Position numbers and translations under genes: made by a program | Part shown: in pieces, positions 21 through 9,040 of the stretch | Layout of the letters: each line of letters opens with the position of its first letter | How positions within the stretch are numbered: the stretch's first letter is position 1 | Assembly: GCA_965198235.1 (NCBI GenBank) | Contig: OZ240248.1 | Location: 384,001 to 448,000, forward strand | Length of the DNA: 64,000 nucleotides | From: Candidatus Poribacteria bacterium | GTDB lineage: Bacteria; Poribacteria; WGA-4E; WGA-3G | Reading direction: 5' to 3' | Notes under the pieces: generated by a model | The model's database searches: none | What the model was told of the DNA's origin: nothing | The model's input: only the letters and a program-made list of their open reading frames with translations

Positions 21-431
21 ATGGATAACGATAACGTTGATGGTATCGCGAAGAAGGTCCTTTGGTCCAATAAACAGATTGCGCTGACGCAGCTAAAAAC
101 TGCCTTAAAGGCATTAGAAGATTCGGAAAGCCCAGTAGTTCCAGAGAGTTATCGTGGTGTCTTGAATCGGATACATGGCGATTTCAAAAGACTTGATGGC
201 GGTATGACGCTTTATCACGAATTGTTGACAGCGTGTACCAGTGAAACCGTAGCACTTGAAACTATCCTCGCATTGAAACAGGAAGTTGAGGAAATTGACG
301 CGCTACTGTCGCACCACGAGACCGAATTACAAAAGTTAGAGACGGACACCCAAACACAATATGAGTTGTCGAAAATGGCACTGTCAATGTTTCAAGAGCG
401 TTTTGAAGAGTTCAAGGCAGGTTGCGAATAA
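21..431 (+). CDS. hypothetical helical/coiled-coil protein
   Basis: 136-aa ORF with ATG, Glu/Leu-rich helical character, 18 bp upstream of the epimerase. Confidence 0.65.
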   Translation: MDNDNVDGIAKKVLWSNKQIALTQLKTALKALEDSESPVVPESYRGVLNRIHGDFKRLDGGMTLYHELLTACTSETVALETILALKQEVEEIDALLSHHETELQKLETDTQTQYELSKMALSMFQERFEEFKAGCE

Positions 432-2348: not shown

Positions 2349-2405
2349 CATCAAAGCGTGCCTGTAGGACACTCCAATGCGTGTGTCCTTTCACAATTAT
2401 TCGGT

Positions 2406-3983
2406 TTACGACGAAGCGATGAGGGCTTTGTCTATATAAAGTTTATACTCGAAACTATCTATCAGTGCCTCGCAACTTGCGGAGATAATATTCTCTGAAA
2501 CACCGACGGTACTCCAAATCCTTTCACCATCGCTCGCTTCAATCAGCACCCGAACTTTTGAACCAGTGCCAGCTTTCGTATCCAACACCCGAACCTTGTA
2601 ATCTATGAGCCGGACTGTCTGCAAGGCGGGGTAGAACTGCTCAAGTGCTTTTCGGAGGGCAGTATCAAGGGCGTTGACGGGTCCATCTCCATCAGCGGCG
2701 GTATGTGCGGTCAGGCCGTCTGGGGTCGTGACCTTTATGGTTGCTTCGGAACGCATGGCGAAGTCACTGAACTGTTCGATAATCACGCGAAAACCGACAG
2801 GCTCAAAAAAGGATTCATATCCATTGAATACCTTATGTGTCAGAAGTTCAAACGATGCTTCGGCGGCTTCGTATTGGTAGCCATCCTGTTCCGCTTCTTT
2901 GAGGCGTTTGAAGAGTTCCAGTACCTGTGGTGAATTCTTGTCGTAATCGGGATATTCCTTCTCGATTTTCTTCATAAGGGTGCCGCGTCCCGCTTGGTCG
3001 GAAACGAGAATTCGTTGCGTATTACCGACTGTTTCCGGCACGATATGCTCATAAGTGAGGCGGTTTTTACGGATGGCATCGGTATGTAAACCCCCTTTAT
3101 GCGCAAAGGCGGAACGCCCAACGTAGGGTTGACGTTCATCATGCGGGAGGTTCGCCAATTCACTGATGAGTCGGGACACACTTGTTATCGCTTGCAATTG
3201 CGTATCGCTGAGGCACTTTATTCCGAGTTTGAGTTGAATTGTGGGGATGATAGAGGCGAGGTTCGCGTTTCCACACCGTTCACCATAGCCGTTGAATGTG
3301 CCTTGCACGTGAGTTGCGCCTGCTTGCACGGCGAGTACTGAATTTGCGGCACCCATTCCTGCGTCGTTGTGGGTATGAATACCGACAGGTAATGACAGTT
3401 CGGCGAGAACGACTTCGACACCCTCCTGAATCTCTAACGGTAATCTGCCGCCATTCGTATCACAAAGGACGAGGCAACTCGCGCCGCCAGTGGCAGCGGC
3501 TCGTAGCGTCTCTATTGCATATTCAGCATCATCGGCGTAACCATCGAAGAAATGTTCGGCATCGTAGATGACCTCGCGACCATTTTCCACGAGATAACGG
3601 ACAGAACTCTCAATTAATTCCAAGTTTTCTTTTGCTGTGACGCGCAGGACATCAGTGGCATGGAGTCGCCAACTTTTTCCAAAGATCGTTATAGTTCTTG
3701 CCCCTGTATCCAGCAAAGCGGTTAAATTTGGATCAGCCTCAGCGGTATAGGTGGGATAGCGCGTGCTACCGAACGGTACGATCGTTGCCGTTTCCAGTGC
3801 CATGCCTTTTGCCCGTTTGAAAAACTCTATGTCTTTTGGATTGGAACCGGGATAGCCACCCTCGATATAGCAGATGCCTAATTTATCCAGTGCCTCTATG
3901 ATGATGAGTTTATCTTCAACAGAAAACGCTACACCTTCTGCTTGGCTGCCATCCCTGAGTGTTGTGTCGTAAAATTCAACCAT
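2406..3983 (-). CDS. cimA: citramalate synthase (LeuA/CimA family)
   Basis: DTTLRDGSQ, IEGGYPGSNPKD, YDAEHFFDG, HTHND, GERCGN, AFAHKGG, regulatory GDGPVNALD; start moved to ATG 3983 (MVEFYD). Confidence 0.92.
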   Translation of the reverse strand: MVEFYDTTLRDGSQAEGVAFSVEDKLIIIEALDKLGICYIEGGYPGSNPKDIEFFKRAKGMALETATIVPFGSTRYPTYTAEADPNLTALLDTGARTITIFGKSWRLHATDVLRVTAKENLELIESSVRYLVENGREVIYDAEHFFDGYADDAEYAIETLRAAATGGASCLVLCDTNGGRLPLEIQEGVEVVLAELSLPVGIHTHNDAGMGAANSVLAVQAGATHVQGTFNGYGERCGNANLASIIPTIQLKLGIKCLSDTQLQAITSVSRLISELANLPHDERQPYVGRSAFAHKGGLHTDAIRKNRLTYEHIVPETVGNTQRILVSDQAGRGTLMKKIEKEYPDYDKNSPQVLELFKRLKEAEQDGYQYEAAEASFELLTHKVFNGYESFFEPVGFRVIIEQFSDFAMRSEATIKVTTPDGLTAHTAADGDGPVNALDTALRKALEQFYPALQTVRLIDYKVRVLDTKAGTGSKVRVLIEASDGERIWSTVGVSENIISASCEALIDSFEYKLYIDKALIASS

Positions 3984-4284
3984 GTTGTTTTCACAGCAAG
4001 TTTTGGCTTGCATTTTTGAATATGGGCTTGCAAGCTTCACCCTACAATGCCAAAATTCAGTATCTCCTTTTATATTTTTGTGTCGTGACTCCTGTCTCAT
4101 CTGTCTACTGATATTTTATCACATTTCAGGGTAAAAGTCAAATTTTGTCTGCGTTTTACGGAGTGCCAACGGGAGCATAAAAGCCTTATGGTACATCTAT
4201 TTTGAACCTCTTAAAGTCGAAAATTATTAGTTGTAATCGGTTTGCATTTTGATAATTCATTCAATTGTGATATTATTGGAAATC

Positions 4285-5553
4285 ATGAAAGCATTTGCTA
4301 TTTTTCTATTTTGCGGTGCGCTGTTGCTCTCAGGTTGTGGGATATTTGCCACCAAGCCGATTCAAACCGAACCGCCGACAACTCCTGTAGACCCACTCGA
4401 AAGACTACACACCAATATTGATGCCGTTTTGGAGGAAGTGTTGTTCACAACTGCAAGCATCGGCATCAAGGTTGTTGCCGTTGAAACAGGGGAAGTGATT
4501 TACGAAAAAAATAGCCACAAGTTACACCACCCTGCCTCTACAACGAAACTCTTCACAGCAGCGACTGCTTTGGCGAAACTGGGGTCGGACTACCAATTTG
4601 AAACAACACTTTACGCTGATGCCGTTGTGAAGGGTGAAGTCGTAGGAAACATCTATCTAAAAGGCAGGGCTGACCCGGTGCTCCAACCTCAAGACATCGT
4701 GAAATTAAGCGATGCATTGCTTCAAATCGGTGTGAAGTCGATACAGGGTGACATCGTCGTTGACGAAACATATCTCGATGCCATTTGGGAAGGTCCGGGG
4801 TGGATGTGGGACGATAGACCGCTGTGGATCAGTGCTTTGAGTATCCGAGAAGTCGAACCCGATGCAAGCAAAATGAGCAGGGCACTTGCCTGTGGACATC
4901 TCTTGAAAACTGTGCTTATGGAAAAAGGCGTTAACGTAATGGGTGATGTAGTGCCAGGAACAGTCTCATCAGATGCACACAGCGTAGCGAAACATCTATC
5001 GCCGCCACTCGCCGACATTCTCAAACTGATGAACAAACCGAGTGACAATTGGATCGCTGAATTGATTTTCAAGACAATAGGTGCTGAAGTGATCGGTGAA
5101 CCGGGGACGTGGAAAAAAGGGAGAGAAGTTGTCACTGAGTTTTTGGCAGAAATCATGGAGGAACCGCCGATGCATCGGTTCGTTGACGGTTCTGGGCTCT
5201 CTCGGTACAATCTCCTCAACGCGGAATTGCTCACGAAGTTGCTCGTTTATATGTATCACAATTTTGAATTGATGCCGGAGTATCTGGCATCACTTCCGAT
5301 TGCTGGTGTCGATGGCACCTTGAAAAGTCGGATGCAAGGCGTGTCCGCCGAAAAGGTATTGCGTGCGAAAACGGGGACGTTAAGCGGTGTTTCTGCGCTT
5401 GCTGGCTACACCGTGACAGCAGACGATGAGGTGTTTGCGTTCGGCATTCTCATCAGCCATTATGTCGGTCCAGCAAGATCAGCGCGAAATATCCAAGATA
5501 AGATTGGGAATTATCTGACGGGGTTTAGTCGTCATTCTTCTATGAAGCGTTAG
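4285..5553 (+). CDS. dacB: D-alanyl-D-alanine carboxypeptidase/endopeptidase (PBP4, peptidase S13), lipoprotein
   Basis: PASTTK (SxxK), SDN, KTGT motifs, DGSGLSRYN; lipobox LSGC. Confidence 0.93.
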   Translation: MKAFAIFLFCGALLLSGCGIFATKPIQTEPPTTPVDPLERLHTNIDAVLEEVLFTTASIGIKVVAVETGEVIYEKNSHKLHHPASTTKLFTAATALAKLGSDYQFETTLYADAVVKGEVVGNIYLKGRADPVLQPQDIVKLSDALLQIGVKSIQGDIVVDETYLDAIWEGPGWMWDDRPLWISALSIREVEPDASKMSRALACGHLLKTVLMEKGVNVMGDVVPGTVSSDAHSVAKHLSPPLADILKLMNKPSDNWIAELIFKTIGAEVIGEPGTWKKGREVVTEFLAEIMEEPPMHRFVDGSGLSRYNLLNAELLTKLLVYMYHNFELMPEYLASLPIAGVDGTLKSRMQGVSAEKVLRAKTGTLSGVSALAGYTVTADDEVFAFGILISHYVGPARSARNIQDKIGNYLTGFSRHSSMKR

Positions 5554-5615
5554 GAATTAACTTCTCTGAGGCAAGTAAGAGCAACTGGAAGTGCTGCTCT
5601 ATTGATGTAATTTTC

Positions 5616-5644
5616 TTGACATATAGGTTTAAATACGCTATAAT
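5616..5644 (+). promoter_or_regulatory. sigma70 promoter, perfect consensus
   Basis: TTGACA-17 bp-TATAAT, overlapped by the direct repeat TAGG(T/C)TTAAATACG at 5624 and 5645. Confidence 0.7.
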
Positions 5645-5898
5645 TAGGCTTAAATACGTTGTAGTCGTTGCAATTTTCAGATTGCTAGGTAGATTTATTG
5701 AAAGCCTGCCAGTTTTTGTCAACTTTTTTCTATATACCCATACTTGGGCTGGGCATGGTATACTGAGGGTGGTTTTGGAATGCCGAGCAAATAAGGAAGT
5801 AGATGTTAACAAAATGTCCTCGCCTATTTTATCATAGCAAAAAACTTATGTTCATGTAAGGTTAACATATTGCATTACGACAGAGGAAACCAGAGATT

Positions 5899-6645
5899 AT
5901 GTTAAGAGCATACCTCGGGGAATTTACCCCTTCATCTGAAATCGAAGATGCTGATGGATTGGACATGCTTGGACTTGATACATTGCCCCAGGAGCAACTT
6001 GCGCCACATGCGCCATCGGCAGGAGATATCGATGAATTTAGTCAGGCACTTGGAGTCCAAGAGCAAGCACCTGTCAAATTTAGCTCGTCACCGATACAAG
6101 AGAGTTCTGATACTACATCAGCCATAGCAGGGCAGAGGAACTATGCGACTCAAGAAGTCAGTAGATTTCAATTGCTTGTTGCTGCTGTGGGCGCGCTTGT
6201 CAACGTAACTGAAGATCGACTCTTAACTACGCTGACAGAAAATGATCATCAAGGGCTTGTCACAGCATTAGACAAGTTAATCGATGTTGTTGGTGAAGAT
6301 GAAAATCATCTTTTTGCTCCATTGATGCATTTCATCGGTAAACTCATCGAGAAGTATGAAGAAACATCTAATGTGACACATCAATATGAATCCTTGGACA
6401 GAGAAGAAGTTGAGAATGAATTGCCTTTACCTGCTCAAGACCTTGAAGCCGCATATAGTGATGCCGAACCCGAGTACACGCTTGATATGCTCATCTCCGT
6501 AAATCCTGACTACGCAGGCCTTAACGAGGAAGGAACTGTCAGTTTACGTGTACCTGCGCGCGGTCTTGAGGCAGCTTATGGCAATGATGAACCCGAATAT
6601 ACCCTCGACATGCTTACCTCGGCAAATCCTGAGTATGATGTATAG
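5899..6645 (+). CDS. putative antitoxin: HigA-like helical segment plus two tandem 'LEAAY..EPEYTLDML.S.NP.Y' motifs
   Basis: Acidic protein; LDKLIDVVGEDENH..LMHFIGKLIEKYE resembles the HigA N-terminal helices; stop overlaps the start of the PemK-like gene. Confidence 0.7.
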   Translation: MLRAYLGEFTPSSEIEDADGLDMLGLDTLPQEQLAPHAPSAGDIDEFSQALGVQEQAPVKFSSSPIQESSDTTSAIAGQRNYATQEVSRFQLLVAAVGALVNVTEDRLLTTLTENDHQGLVTALDKLIDVVGEDENHLFAPLMHFIGKLIEKYEETSNVTHQYESLDREEVENELPLPAQDLEAAYSDAEPEYTLDMLISVNPDYAGLNEEGTVSLRVPARGLEAAYGNDEPEYTLDMLTSANPEYDV

Positions 6646-7339
6646 ACCCCCCAAACCTATCGCAGAGCGCGACGTAATTCTCGTTTATTTACTCGGAAAT
6701 TCCCAGTCCTTTCTCAATAGAGTTCAGGTATACCTTAGGGCGAGAGAAAAATTAGTTGGCCTGCCTCCTGAAGATCTGCAACGCCATCAAAAACGGATAG
6801 ACGATACGCTTGAGGCGAATTCGGATGATATACAAGCACTCTTGGAGTTGGCAGTGCTTCTTGAGATGCAGGATGATCTTCCTGAAGCAACAAACGCACT
6901 TGAGGATGTACTTGAGATACTCTCAGAACGTCAGGAGGACAGTTCTGATGTTTACATACCGCTAGGATCTCTGTATGAACGCCAAGAACGATACGACGAG
7001 GCACGCCATGCTTATGAGGAAGGAGAAAAGTCAGGATTAAAACTTAGACCTGCGATTTGCCTGCGAAAATTACCGCCGACTTATTATAAGGAATTCCTCG
7101 TTTGCGGCATAAGTTCACAAATAACGCGGAGCGAAGCGAATTTTGATGAAGTTGTTGGAAACACAGTTGATAATAGTGTAAAACTTAATGCTAAACAATC
7201 TGTGATTCGAGTCGGCTTCTTAGGGCGAGTCCGAACGGAGGAAATAGTCGGAAGTATAGGTGAGATATCAACTGTTCGCCACAGGCGTTTATTGAAAAAA
7301 TTAAGTGAGTATTTGGTTAATTCAAAACATCGCGTGTAG
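6635..7339 (+). CDS. PemK/MazF-family toxin with internal TPR insertion
   Basis: ERDVILVYL (beta1)...KLRPAICL, LVCGISS, SVIRVGFLG, IVGSIGEIS..RHRRLLKKLSEYL; ATG at 6635/6638 overlaps the upstream stop. Confidence 0.78.
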   Translation: MMYRPPKPIAERDVILVYLLGNSQSFLNRVQVYLRAREKLVGLPPEDLQRHQKRIDDTLEANSDDIQALLELAVLLEMQDDLPEATNALEDVLEILSERQEDSSDVYIPLGSLYERQERYDEARHAYEEGEKSGLKLRPAICLRKLPPTYYKEFLVCGISSQITRSEANFDEVVGNTVDNSVKLNAKQSVIRVGFLGRVRTEEIVGSIGEISTVRHRRLLKKLSEYLVNSKHRV

Positions 7340-7630
7340 TGTTTCAAACAGTCGTTTTACCGTTCCAAATTTCAATTGGATTGTAGTAGAATTTCCTCTT
7401 CTACTTTACTCACAACTACCATAGGAGAGTTGGGCTTTGTGATGCATTGCATGAGATAAAATGAAGTGCAAATTGCTGTCTGGTTTGAATCTCCGAGTAG
7501 AAATTGATAGTCGTAAATACCGCCATGCCCCATTCGCTCACACACAATTGTTCCTACTTGAAATCGGTGTCATCAAGCGGACTTGATCCCCGAAAACGGC
7601 ATGATGTGAGACACAACATCAAAGGTAACT

Positions 7631-9040
7631 GTGAACGCAAAAACGCTAATTGAAATCATAGAAAATATCAGTAATCTGCAGAAAGTTGGATCAGTAGCCG
7701 AAACTGTGCAAAAGGAACTGCAGAACACTCAATTGTCTCTGATAGACAGAGCGATAATTGATGCCTATCTGTTGCAACGGGATGGAAAAATTGCGGATGC
7801 CATGGAAAAGTGGCAATCCATCGTAAATATTGCAGAAGGAATAGATAATGAACTCGCTTCCTATGCTTGGTTTTCCATCGGCGGTCTCTTGTCGGATAAC
7901 AATCAAGAAGATGCCTGTCTCGCTTACGATAACGCGATTAGCCTTAAGCCGGATAATGCCGTCTACTACAACAATCGAGGAGCCACAAAATCACTTTTAG
8001 AACAATATGAGTCCGCTATTTCTGATTATAATGAGGCGATACGTCTGAATCCCGAGTATGTGGACGCTTATTACAATAGAGGATGGGCAAGAAGCGAACT
8101 CCATCAATACGAATCCGCAGTTAACGACTATAATGAGGTGATACGCCTGAATCCTGAGTATACTGATGCCTACTACAACCGTGCGAGAGCGAAAAATAGG
8201 CTCAAGCACCATGAGGCTGCAATCGCCGATTATGACGAAGTCCTGCGTCTAAAACCGGATTATGCAGAAGCTTACAGTAATCGAGGGATAGCAAAAGGGA
8301 CGTTGGGGCACCATGAGGCTGCGATTGCTGATTTTGACGAAAGTATAAAACTCAATCCGGATGGTGCCCATGCCTATTTTATGCAAGGGCATGCAAAGGA
8401 TGTCTTGGAACGTTATGAGGAAGCAATTGTTGACTTTGATGAAGGTATAAAACGCAAACCAGGTGATGTTTACGCCTACTTTAGGCGTGGCTCAGCAAAG
8501 ATTAGATTAGAATACTATAAGACTGCAATTATTGATTTTGATGAGGTCATTCGGCTTAAACCAGATTTTGCGCAAGCTTATTTCATGCGTGGACGTGCGA
8601 AACTTAAATTAGAACGTTATGAGGGCGCGATTGCTGATTTTGATAAAAGCATTGAACTCAAACCGGATTTTCCTGAAACCTACTTCTTACGTGGCTATGC
8701 CAAACATGAACTAAAATGCTATGAAGCTGCGATTGCTGATTTTGATAAAAGCATTGAACTCAAACCAGATGACGCTGAAGCCTATAACAATCGCGGTTTT
8801 TCAAAAATTAAGTTAGATCGGACTGAGTCAGCTCTTATTGACTGTGACGAAGCGATTCGTCTAAACCCATCCTTGGCTGAAGCTTATCACACCCGAGGCG
8901 AAGCGAATGCCCTCTTGGAAAGAATTCAAGAAGCAAAAACGGATTTCCAGAAAGCCTTGGAGTTAGCAGAACAAATCGACAACCAAGATCTCAAAACTGA
9001 GATTGAGGATTCGCTTCAAGAACTTAACAACGCCGAGTAG
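7631..9040 (+). CDS. tetratricopeptide repeat protein (~11 TPRs)
   Basis: Repeated AYYNRG...AIADFDEAIRLKPD units of 34 aa. Confidence 0.92.
   Translation: MNAKTLIEIIENISNLQKVGSVAETVQKELQNTQLSLIDRAIIDAYLLQRDGKIADAMEKWQSIVNIAEGIDNELASYAWFSIGGLLSDNNQEDACLAYDNAISLKPDNAVYYNNRGATKSLLEQYESAISDYNEAIRLNPEYVDAYYNRGWARSELHQYESAVNDYNEVIRLNPEYTDAYYNRARAKNRLKHHEAAIADYDEVLRLKPDYAEAYSNRGIAKGTLGHHEAAIADFDESIKLNPDGAHAYFMQGHAKDVLERYEEAIVDFDEGIKRKPGDVYAYFRRGSAKIRLEYYKTAIIDFDEVIRLKPDFAQAYFMRGRAKLKLERYEGAIADFDKSIELKPDFPETYFLRGYAKHELKCYEAAIADFDKSIELKPDDAEAYNNRGFSKIKLDRTESALIDCDEAIRLNPSLAEAYHTRGEANALLERIQEAKTDFQKALELAEQIDNQDLKTEIEDSLQELNNAE

Follow-up and report, generated by a model that had tools for sequence, protein, structure and literature searches.

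The gene at positions 6635..7339 (+ strand) of the stretch studied here raises the question of how a small toxin of the MazF/PemK fold can carry a tetratricopeptide repeat (TPR) domain in the middle of that fold, and what such a domain might do there. The stretch, called the window below, comprises 64,000 nucleotides (nt) of Candidatus Poribacteria bacterium (assembly GCA_965198235.1, contig OZ240248.1, positions 384,001 to 448,000 of the forward strand). MazF toxins belong to the most thoroughly studied RNases of bacteria; the loop between their strands beta1 and beta2 is a mobile gate over the active site. The product of the gene, a protein of 234 amino acid residues (aa) designated P0001, is probably the toxin of a three-gene toxin-antitoxin-type cassette of a Poribacteria clade, in which the TPR domain would serve as a regulatory handle. 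The first gene of the cassette would encode an antitoxin composed of a disordered N-terminal extension, a helical domain akin to proteins that accompany HigB toxins, and a pair of acidic tandem repeats. The second would encode a MazF-family endoribonuclease, in which the short beta1-beta2 gate loop appears to be replaced by a helical/TPR module of 114 residues, and the third a large TPR protein.

Fold of the toxin and position of the TPR insert

The reading frame of P0001, assigned by open reading frame (ORF), profile and structure comparisons (AlphaFold2, Foldseek and VIA), extends from the ATG at 6635 to the TAG at 7337-7339. A GTG at 6548 is another possible start and would yield a product of 263 aa; the majority of homologues begin at the MM encoded from 6635. 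A preliminary description of the locus had presented the protein as a MazF/PemK-fold toxin with a TPR module in the beta1-beta2 loop, and the motifs that it quoted are all found where it placed them: ERDVILVYL at residues 11-19, KLRPAICL at 136-143 and CGISS at 157-161.

Profile searches, which the same description had put forward as a check on both parts of the protein, bore out the TPR part and left the PemK part below threshold. Pfam assigned TPR_12 to residues 67-129 with 37.2 bits (cut-off 30.1), as well as TPR_2 with 28.5 bits (cut-off 27), and the alignment profile of P0001 matched TPR structures among Protein Data Bank (PDB) sequences at E 2e-8. The best 60 rows of this PDB search were all TPR chains, with nothing on the MazF part. 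On the whole protein, Pfam gave TPR families only; 20 families had E<=10, and PemK_toxin was not one of them. When the C-terminal 101 aa were compared with PemK_toxin, a match of 14.3 bits (E 0.049) below the cut-off of 23.1 was obtained; it spans profile positions 20-108 of 109, which is the part of the domain after the beta1-beta2 loop. No NCBIfam score exceeded any cut-off for the toxin or for the protein encoded upstream, and the ESM Atlas returned generic TPR clusters only (0.86-0.87, under the level counted as a lead).

The AlphaFold2 model of P0001 (66 aligned sequences; pLDDT 84.4, pTM 0.73) contains on its N-terminal side a strand at residues 13-20 and helices at 23-40, 45-61, 66-78, 82-98, 104-116 and 120-132, followed on the C-terminal side by strands at 135-145, 153-160, 172-174, 189-200 and 207-210 and a helix at 213-228. 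The best PDB matches to this model found by Foldseek were MazF toxins (5hk0_A, E 1.9e-4, TMt 0.63; top chains, TMt 0.54-0.68). Further matches included MazF-mt1, MazF-mt9 and the MazF proteins of S. aureus and B. subtilis, and designed TPR proteins ranked lower. The VIA alignment of model residues 5..229 with MazF-mt3 (9ikd_A) covered 105/107 residues with Z 13.6 and an rmsd of 2.6, and the region of approximately 30..138 matched TPR chains, including PEX5, APC subunits and designed TPRs, with Z 11-13.

Beta strand 1 of the MazF fold is encoded by 6671..6694 (+ strand; residues 13-20 of the AlphaFold2 model), and the VIA alignments begin at residues 5-9. D13, V14 and I15 of this strand are nearly invariant among homologues. 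The insert occupies 6695..7036 (+ strand; residues 21-134), the last four of its six helices making up two TPR units, and the remaining MazF core is encoded by 7037..7336 (+ strand; residues 135-234), with the codons of R138 and S160 at 7046-7048 and 7112-7114, respectively. As one MazF fold is made up of strand 1 together with the last ~100 residues, the TPR domain is an insertion. The ~110 helical residues with two TPR-like units reported earlier thus correspond to 114 residues comprising a helical hairpin and two Pfam-recognised TPR units.

The architecture is also apparent from relatives that do not contain the insert. In one of them, P0071 (131 aa), both flanks are joined by a short loop: ERDVILVPIGGKLRPAICLRK. 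Five PemK_toxin matches were found in the same genome; L024, an insert-free paralogue of 116 aa encoded there, matches the P0001 core with 39% identity (E 1e-17) and passes the threshold of PemK_toxin PF02452 with 28.0 bits (cut-off 23.1). A protein of a cyanobacterial (Pseudanabaena) plasmid, labelled in RefSeq as a 'PemK/MazF family toxin', is 37% identical over P0001 residues 131-234. By the fold match, the TPR profiles and the insert-free relative, the architecture first described is upheld, and the MazF fold of P0001 is predicted to be intact. Another insert-free protein of the same clade, P0197 (157 aa), has an N-terminal Cys-rich, zinc-ribbon-like extension.

Catalytic residues

The profile of 41 insert-free relatives matched MazF6 and S. 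aureus MazF in the PDB with E 0.002-0.003. In the comparison with S. aureus MazF, K-l-R-P of the profile corresponds to g-v-R-P, and g-i-S-s-q to a-I-T-g-r. The Arg of the K-x-R-P motif, to which the preliminary description had drawn attention, is kept as R138 in 66/66 alignment rows, and position 160 is occupied by Ser in 48/66 and by Thr in 18/66 rows. These two positions correspond to the catalytic Arg and Thr/Ser of MazF. It is likely that the free toxin would cut RNA.

The upstream antitoxin-like gene

An upstream partner gene, as expected from the earlier description, is present at 5899..6645 (+ strand). It encodes a protein of 248 aa (P0002) with a net charge of -38 and overlaps the toxin gene by 11 nt. 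According to AlphaFold2, residues 1-87 are disordered and acidic and are followed by helices at approximately 86-164 and by two acidic tandem repeats. Among 138 homologues, 56 were aligned, and this alignment displays a variable N-terminus, a conserved helical domain and two nearly invariant tandem repeats. Both P0002 and the 56-member alignment stayed below all curated Pfam and NCBIfam cut-offs, and among PDB sequences nothing better than E 4.3 was obtained; TacA1 matched 2/56 members of the alignment only, with E 0.1 at best. The AlphaFold2 model of P0002 is of low confidence (pLDDT 55.8), as are the repeats taken by themselves, and a wide fold search with this low-confidence model gave generic helical hairpins at Z 7.3 as the best result and nothing at Z>=8. 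P0002 is predicted to be an antitoxin of a new type.

The helical 'constant' domain of the antitoxin is encoded by 6154..6390 (+ strand; residues ~86-164; block pLDDT ~59-86) and carries the motif LDKLIDVVGEDENH...LIEKYE. Over 41-50 residues it is 60-71% identical to proteins of 75-89 aa from other phyla, with relatives in Crocosphaera, Desulfobacterales, Pirellulaceae and Latescibacterota. In 2/2 cases tested, these small proteins are encoded directly 3' of HigB_toxin genes (PF09907, 107.8 and 105.8 bits) and, owing to this location, stand in the antitoxin position. Their appearance is that of a small family of HigB antitoxins that has no name as yet. The arrangement of a HigB_toxin gene followed by a relative of the helical domain without a Pfam family was observed at L107:2178-2692, L112:1275-1913 and L110:2221-2767 (Crocosphaera, Desulfobacterales and Pirellulaceae).

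The two tandem repeats, which are predicted to be the toxin-neutralising elements, are encoded by 6421..6642 (+ strand; residues 175-206 and 216-248). Their shared core is A-A-Y-x-x-x-E-P-E-Y-T-L-D-M-L, given in the 56-member alignment as A-A-Y-x-x-D-E-P-E-Y-T-x-D-M-L, and they appear in DNA as a direct repeat, 6421-6512 and 6544-6635, with 72% likeness. The association of the repeats with MazF extends beyond the insert-bearing form. A homologue of P0002 is encoded directly upstream of 13/13 related toxin ORFs, with or without the insert, at L008-L019 and L024, and the protein encoded upstream of the Pseudanabaena plasmid MazF ends with the antitoxin repeat motif (E 7e-6). In four single-chain proteins of 173-194 aa (P0220, P0224, P0239 and P0273), an A-Y-x-x-D-E-P-D-Y-type motif in the N-terminal extension precedes an insert-free MazF of the same subfamily; these may be self-inhibited toxins or gene-call fusions. 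At L004:3420-3776, a 118-aa ORF located ~450 nt ahead of the antitoxin gene is a partial duplicate of it, corresponding to its N-terminal region.

Predicted toxin-antitoxin complex

The complex with the upstream protein, the modelling of which had been suggested in the preliminary description, was predicted for two toxin copies and antitoxin residues 85-248 with alignments of our own. The ipSAE values were 0.70, 0.63 and 0.64 (median 0.64), and the best of three controls gave 0.00. The three runs share at least 92% of contacts, with a partner pLDDT of at least 75. In the calibration, which is only roughly applicable here, the mark was reached by 58/80 solved complexes and 2/110 mismatched pairs.

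The best run has one repeat at each active site: toxin copy 1 is covered by repeat 2 (216-248) and copy 2 by repeat 1 (175-206). The contacted toxin residues include 15-24, 135-140 (K136, R138 and P139), 156-162 (S160) and 195-209, and Y193 and Y234 of the antitoxin are packed against P139 of the toxin. The model supports the plugging of both active sites of the dimer by one antitoxin chain. The toxin dimer would be held inactive by a single antitoxin molecule, each repeat covering one active site (R138/P139 and S160-Q162). Contacts of the insert with the antitoxin are limited to residues 21-35, 99-102 and 131-133.

The insert would border the RNA groove, and its concave face would be free in the modelled toxin-antitoxin complex. 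Because of this location and this free face, the insert may act as a regulatory handle that binds a protein or a peptide.

Properties and origin of the insert

The insert of P0001 has a net charge of -15, and the core of the toxin is basic (+10). In the subfamily, the median charge of the insert is -9, with a range from -17 to +4 (n=62); in more distant members it varies from -6 to +9. Seven residues of the insert, namely Q24, F26, R29, E77, Q79, E115 and Q117, are conserved in 60-62 of 62 insert-bearing rows. The TPR-S 'sensor' family matched P0001 with E 0.042 and the homologue at L013 with E 6.2e-4, both below the cut-off of 27.6 bits.

These properties bear on the idea that the insert selects the substrate, walling the RNA groove or docking the toxin to a cellular particle, and has no regulatory role. 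Judging from established MazF-RNA structures such as 5hk0 and 4mdx, the insert flanks the RNA-binding groove, and its orientation is fixed in the model (pTM 0.73). The strongly acidic character of the insert argues against direct RNA binding, its charge is not constant in distant members, and nothing points to a target particle. Substrate selection is therefore considered an unlikely function of the insert.

As for its origin, P0001 residues 46-132 were matched (44% identity, E 7e-19) to residues 857-939 of a protein of 1041 aa that is encoded in the same genome at L034:2510-5635 (G000:C1:342509-345634), ~40 kb before the window, and combines MFS, spermidine-synthase and C-terminal TPR parts. 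ORFs of ~1050 codons like this one were matched in most genomes of the phylum. With the spermidine-synthase-like protein, alignments within its residues 856-966 were obtained for 12/12 insert representatives tested (E 1.7e-4 to 7e-19), and 11/12 gave an alignment with the large TPR protein encoded next to the toxin (E 7e-4 to 8.6). The latter was rejected as the donor of the insert, with E 0.14 for P0001 against 7e-19 for the spermidine-synthase-like protein. The closest counterpart of the insert is the TPR tail of this spermidine-synthase-like membrane protein, a housekeeping protein. Since the membrane protein is more widely distributed, the transfer probably proceeded from it to the toxin.

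Distribution and phylogeny

The homologue search with P0001 found 69 proteins among 654 candidates. Approximately 60/69 are full length (222-251 aa, 46-95% identity, full coverage), and 5/69 carry the JGI label 'mRNA interferase MazF'. P0001-type loci in species-representative genomes belong to Poribacteria in 6/7 cases and to an 'uncultured bacterium' in 1/7. In 176 genomes of the phylum, a profile search detected at least 16 full-length places in at least 14 genomes, among the 150 best matches listed; the full-length places among these matches all fall in one family-level group. The insert-bearing form is found in far fewer genomes of the phylum than its insert-free relatives, which have 116-130 aa.

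A search with the core only against 1.84 billion representatives yielded 150 matches with E<=0.001, including 28 with E<=1e-10. Of the 150, ten are 216-246 aa long and have a core that does not begin before residue 119, which means that they also carry the insert. A quick maximum-likelihood tree was constructed for 97 core sequences after removal of incomplete cores, proteins longer than 400 aa and all but 15 members of the close family. It placed 19/19 insert-bearing rows inside one clade of 27 rows (SH-aLRT 96), which also holds, in nested positions, seven insert-free rows and one N-extended row. This pattern fits a single gain of the insert followed by later losses and is no proof of it. 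As a feature of one clade, the insert is old and conserved. All traceable full-length homologues are from Poribacteria, and the cassette is restricted, as far as seen, to one clade of these sponge symbionts.

The distribution also bears on a trivial explanation of the locus, an assembly chimera, a mis-called ORF or a decaying pseudogene. The window probably does stem from an assembly of metagenome type, of a lineage that is uncultured. Against such an artefact stand the same architecture in ~60 clusters from many assemblies, in at least 14 genomes and in ten distant representatives, the uninterrupted reading frame with its confident AlphaFold2 model, and the occurrence of the stretch in RNA and DNA runs of several studies. 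The probability of an artefact is thus considered negligible. The concern voiced in the preliminary description, that the protein might be a one-off chimera, is answered by a conserved lineage with ~60 full-length homologues and a single insert clade.

That description had also not recognised the architecture as a known system. A full-text literature search, the scope of which did not include supplementary gene lists, found no paper describing a MazF with an inserted TPR, and this assessment stands within the texts covered. One candidate match, PMC13107127, was discarded, as 'Tpr' in the text found is a species abbreviation.

Degraded relatives of the locus were observed as well. In P0067 (166 aa), the N-terminal ~100 residues of the toxin run into a stretch that corresponds to the C-terminal 66 residues of the large TPR protein (48% identity, E 2e-14). 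P0067 is a natural deletion chimera that keeps strand 1 and most of the insert and has lost the MazF catalytic core. The related loci L006, L007, L042 and L044 are truncated, and several of them retain toxin residues ~7-45 only.

The third gene and the exchange of the cassette

The gene of the large TPR protein is located at 7631..9040 (+ strand) and encodes 469 aa with 10 TPR units by Pfam, which recognised TPR families only. A homologue is found downstream of the toxin in L001-L004 and in 7/9 further loci. In five loci, the toxin and TPR genes are separated by a gap of 7 nt or overlap by 4 nt.

In the 80 loci gathered with the antitoxin alignment, the large TPR gene lies downstream of 9/9 insert-bearing toxins and of 2/26 insert-free or N-extended toxins. 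When the unique loci of both sets are counted, 13/14 insert-bearing loci possess it directly downstream, L029 being the exception. Long antitoxins (at least 212 aa) are encoded in 10/13 loci with the large TPR gene and in 1/64 without it, where an antitoxin ORF was called. The number of antitoxin repeats was rejected as a correlate of the insert, antitoxins with two repeats being found beside insert-free toxins too.

Since the insert co-occurs with the large TPR protein and the long antitoxin extension, the TPR may serve the system's own components and not a foreign protein. The insert would then act together with two co-inherited features, the large TPR protein and the extended N-terminus of the antitoxin. 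A more specific version of this scheme is a three-component switch, in which the gate-loop TPR and the large TPR protein would compete for short motifs in the disordered antitoxin N-terminus or for a foreign or host protein, and the exchange of partners, not the degradation of the antitoxin, would free the RNase. We regard this version as rather doubtful. If it were true, the locus would represent a ligand-gated MazF that arose from a captured housekeeping TPR and was diversified by cassette swapping in sponge symbionts.

In three genomes of the same genus (G173, G160 and G170), the cassette occupies the same chromosomal site. The flanking proteins, which are isopropylmalate-synthase-like, PBP4-like, PhyH-like and sulfite-oxidase-like, are 79-97% identical to those of the window. 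The corresponding values are 36-37% for the toxin, 57-60% for the antitoxin (42% over a partial 119-aa ORF in G170) and 46-66% for the large TPR protein. In G173, the toxin (37%) and the antitoxin (60%) contrast with flanking proteins of 92-97% identity. The swapped segment, 6358..7626 (+ strand), has no DNA similarity to the G173 site, and its flanks are 77-91% identical. The blastn alignment of the window with L026 covers 2404-6357 at 87%, resumes at 7627 at 77% and shows nothing between. The helical domain of the antitoxin ends at position 6357, and the TPR gene starts shortly after 7627; from these borders, the exchanged unit consists of the antitoxin repeats and the toxin. Such a unit fits the supposition that the repeats set the specificity for the toxin, and its exchange between close genomes would, by analogy, be typical of conflict or immunity loci.

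Four sponge metatranscriptome runs from one study contain 77-95% of the sampled words. Contigs from RNA libraries extend across the antitoxin-toxin junction (X4, 5647-6935; X7, 5708-6865; X9, 6053-7433) and across the interval between the toxin and the TPR gene (X4, 6988-8474; X8, 7490-7823). The depths of these contigs vary along the locus and are unfit for ranking genes.

A number of observations weigh against the reading of P0001 as the toxin of a three-gene cassette with a regulatory TPR. P0001 remains below every PemK/MazF profile threshold, its membership of the family being established through the fold and transitive homology. In two distant insert-bearing representatives, the catalytic Arg is replaced, by Thr in P0211/L013 (K-L-T-P) and by Lys in P0202. 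The structure of the complex is a prediction, calculated with alignments of our own and in a set-up of two copies plus partner that differs from the calibration, and the N-terminal 84 residues of the antitoxin lie outside it. The link of the TPR to the antitoxin extension and the large TPR protein is one of co-occurrence, counted in related genomes, so that the counts are not independent; L029 bears the insert without the large TPR gene, and the insert-free loci L045 and L046, as well as L032, possess that gene. The locus is situated among housekeeping genes, in neither a defence island nor a mobile element. PADLOC (2023 library) gave no match for the toxin and only E 0.017-0.062 for the antitoxin and the TPR protein; no match was found in the phage records searched, and the plasmid records contained one insert-free relative only. 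Finally, DNA may be present in RNA libraries, and the contigs are no proof of transcription.

Part of this evidence concerns a reading that goes back to the preliminary description, in which the TPR would recognise a protein of foreign or host origin, such as a phage protein or a sponge-derived ligand. Binding would open or close the gate loop, and the ligand-gated endoribonuclease would act as a switch in defence or symbiosis. The insert does replace exactly the loop beside the catalytic Arg, and a binding surface would be available, as most of the TPR (helices 2-5) is uncontacted by the antitoxin in the model. The swapping of the toxin-plus-repeat cassette between close genomes resembles that in conflict systems, and the weak, sub-threshold TPR-S matches of P0001 and L013 mentioned above point in the same direction. 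The sensing of a foreign protein nevertheless seems rather unlikely to be the function of the insert, given the position outside defence islands and the absence of a convincing PADLOC match or of any match in the phage records searched. Moreover, the closest relative of the insert is the TPR of a housekeeping membrane protein, and the conservation of its seven residues is unlike that of a fast-evolving sensor surface.

The chromosomal setting could also be understood if the pair were domesticated, that is, a non-toxic, vertically inherited module for RNA processing or regulation, in which the 'antitoxin' is merely a partner. The fixed place between housekeeping genes in several genomes, the loss of the catalytic Arg in two lineages and the coverage of the locus by RNA-library contigs are in line with this. 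The retention of R138 and S/T160 in 66/66 rows, the overlap of the genes in the manner of toxin-antitoxin pairs and the antitoxin repeats modelled on the active sites speak for a toxin instead. The same is true of the limited occurrence of the cassette (at least 14/176 genomes, among the matches listed) with divergent alleles at one site, and of the natural deletion that removes the catalytic core in P0067. Domestication is accordingly judged improbable, and the reading as a three-gene toxin-antitoxin-type cassette is retained as the preferred one. At L031 (G086:C72), a locus listed with L013 as having the Arg replaced, neither the antitoxin nor the large TPR gene has been lost.

Comparison with known systems

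P0001 shares its fold with the MazF/PemK (Kid, ChpBK) toxins, for example MazF-mt3 (MazF6) and the S. aureus and B. subtilis proteins, nearly whole chains of which were aligned by VIA with Z 11.4-13.6. As in these toxins, an Arg follows the beta1-beta2 loop and a Ser/Thr is located on the next strand; an overlapping antitoxin gene lies upstream, and an acidic segment of the antitoxin is predicted over the active site. Unlike them, P0001 has 234 aa rather than ~110-130, its gate loop is a helical/TPR domain of 114 residues, its score is under the PF02452 threshold, its antitoxin is unrelated to MazE/PemI, and a third gene encoding a TPR protein is attached.

Closer still are the insert-free members of the subfamily, such as L024 with its 110-aa antitoxin, P0071 and the Pseudanabaena pair. 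Their cores are 37-57% identical, and the A-Y-x-x-D-E-P-E-Y antitoxin motif is common to them. They differ in having no TPR insert, in the absence of the large TPR gene in 24/26 loci and in their short antitoxins of 110-150 aa, which have no N-terminal extension.

P0002 resembles MazE, PemI and Kis in being encoded upstream, acidic and largely disordered, with a C-terminal part predicted to lie in the RNA groove of the toxin. In contrast to these antitoxins, no AbrB-type or ribbon-helix-helix domain was detected in it by Pfam, NCBIfam, PDB and fold searches. It carries two tandem repeats per chain, modelled one per protomer, and its helical domain is common to partners of HigB.

In toxin-antitoxin-chaperone (TAC) modules, a SecB-like chaperone is encoded by the third gene of a toxin-antitoxin pair. 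The Poribacteria cassette is similar to them in gene organisation only, having a conserved third gene and a co-occurring additional disordered extension of the antitoxin; unlike in TAC modules, the third protein is a TPR array and not SecB-like, according to Pfam.

A conserved lineage in which the gate loop has become a protein-binding domain would be a natural experiment on how a small toxin acquires a regulatory or targeting input. Further leads are offered by the design of the antitoxin with two plugs, by the likely donor of the insert and by the sharply bounded cassette of toxin plus plugs exchanged between close genomes. The hosts are uncultured sponge symbionts, and all parts of the cassette are small and easily expressed.

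Intergenic regions of the cassette

The toxin and the large TPR gene are separated in the window by 290 nt (7340-7630); the other allele of the cassette has 7 nt at this place. A search of 5400-7800, which includes the gap, gave nothing in Rfam at E<=1, and the gap has no site resembling a terminator on the + strand.

Upstream of the antitoxin gene, a promoter-like site TTGACA-17-TATAAT is located at 5616..5644 (+ strand), with 12/12 consensus matches. Two direct repeats of 19 nt with 84% likeness, 5624-5642 and 5645-5663, overlap it. By its match to the consensus, the region 5616-5663 may contain the promoter and operator of the cassette. A second element, TGGTATACT, is found at 5716-5765, ~100 nt downstream of the promoter-like site and upstream of the antitoxin gene. 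Both this element and the TTGACA...TATAAT pair are conserved in L001-L004.

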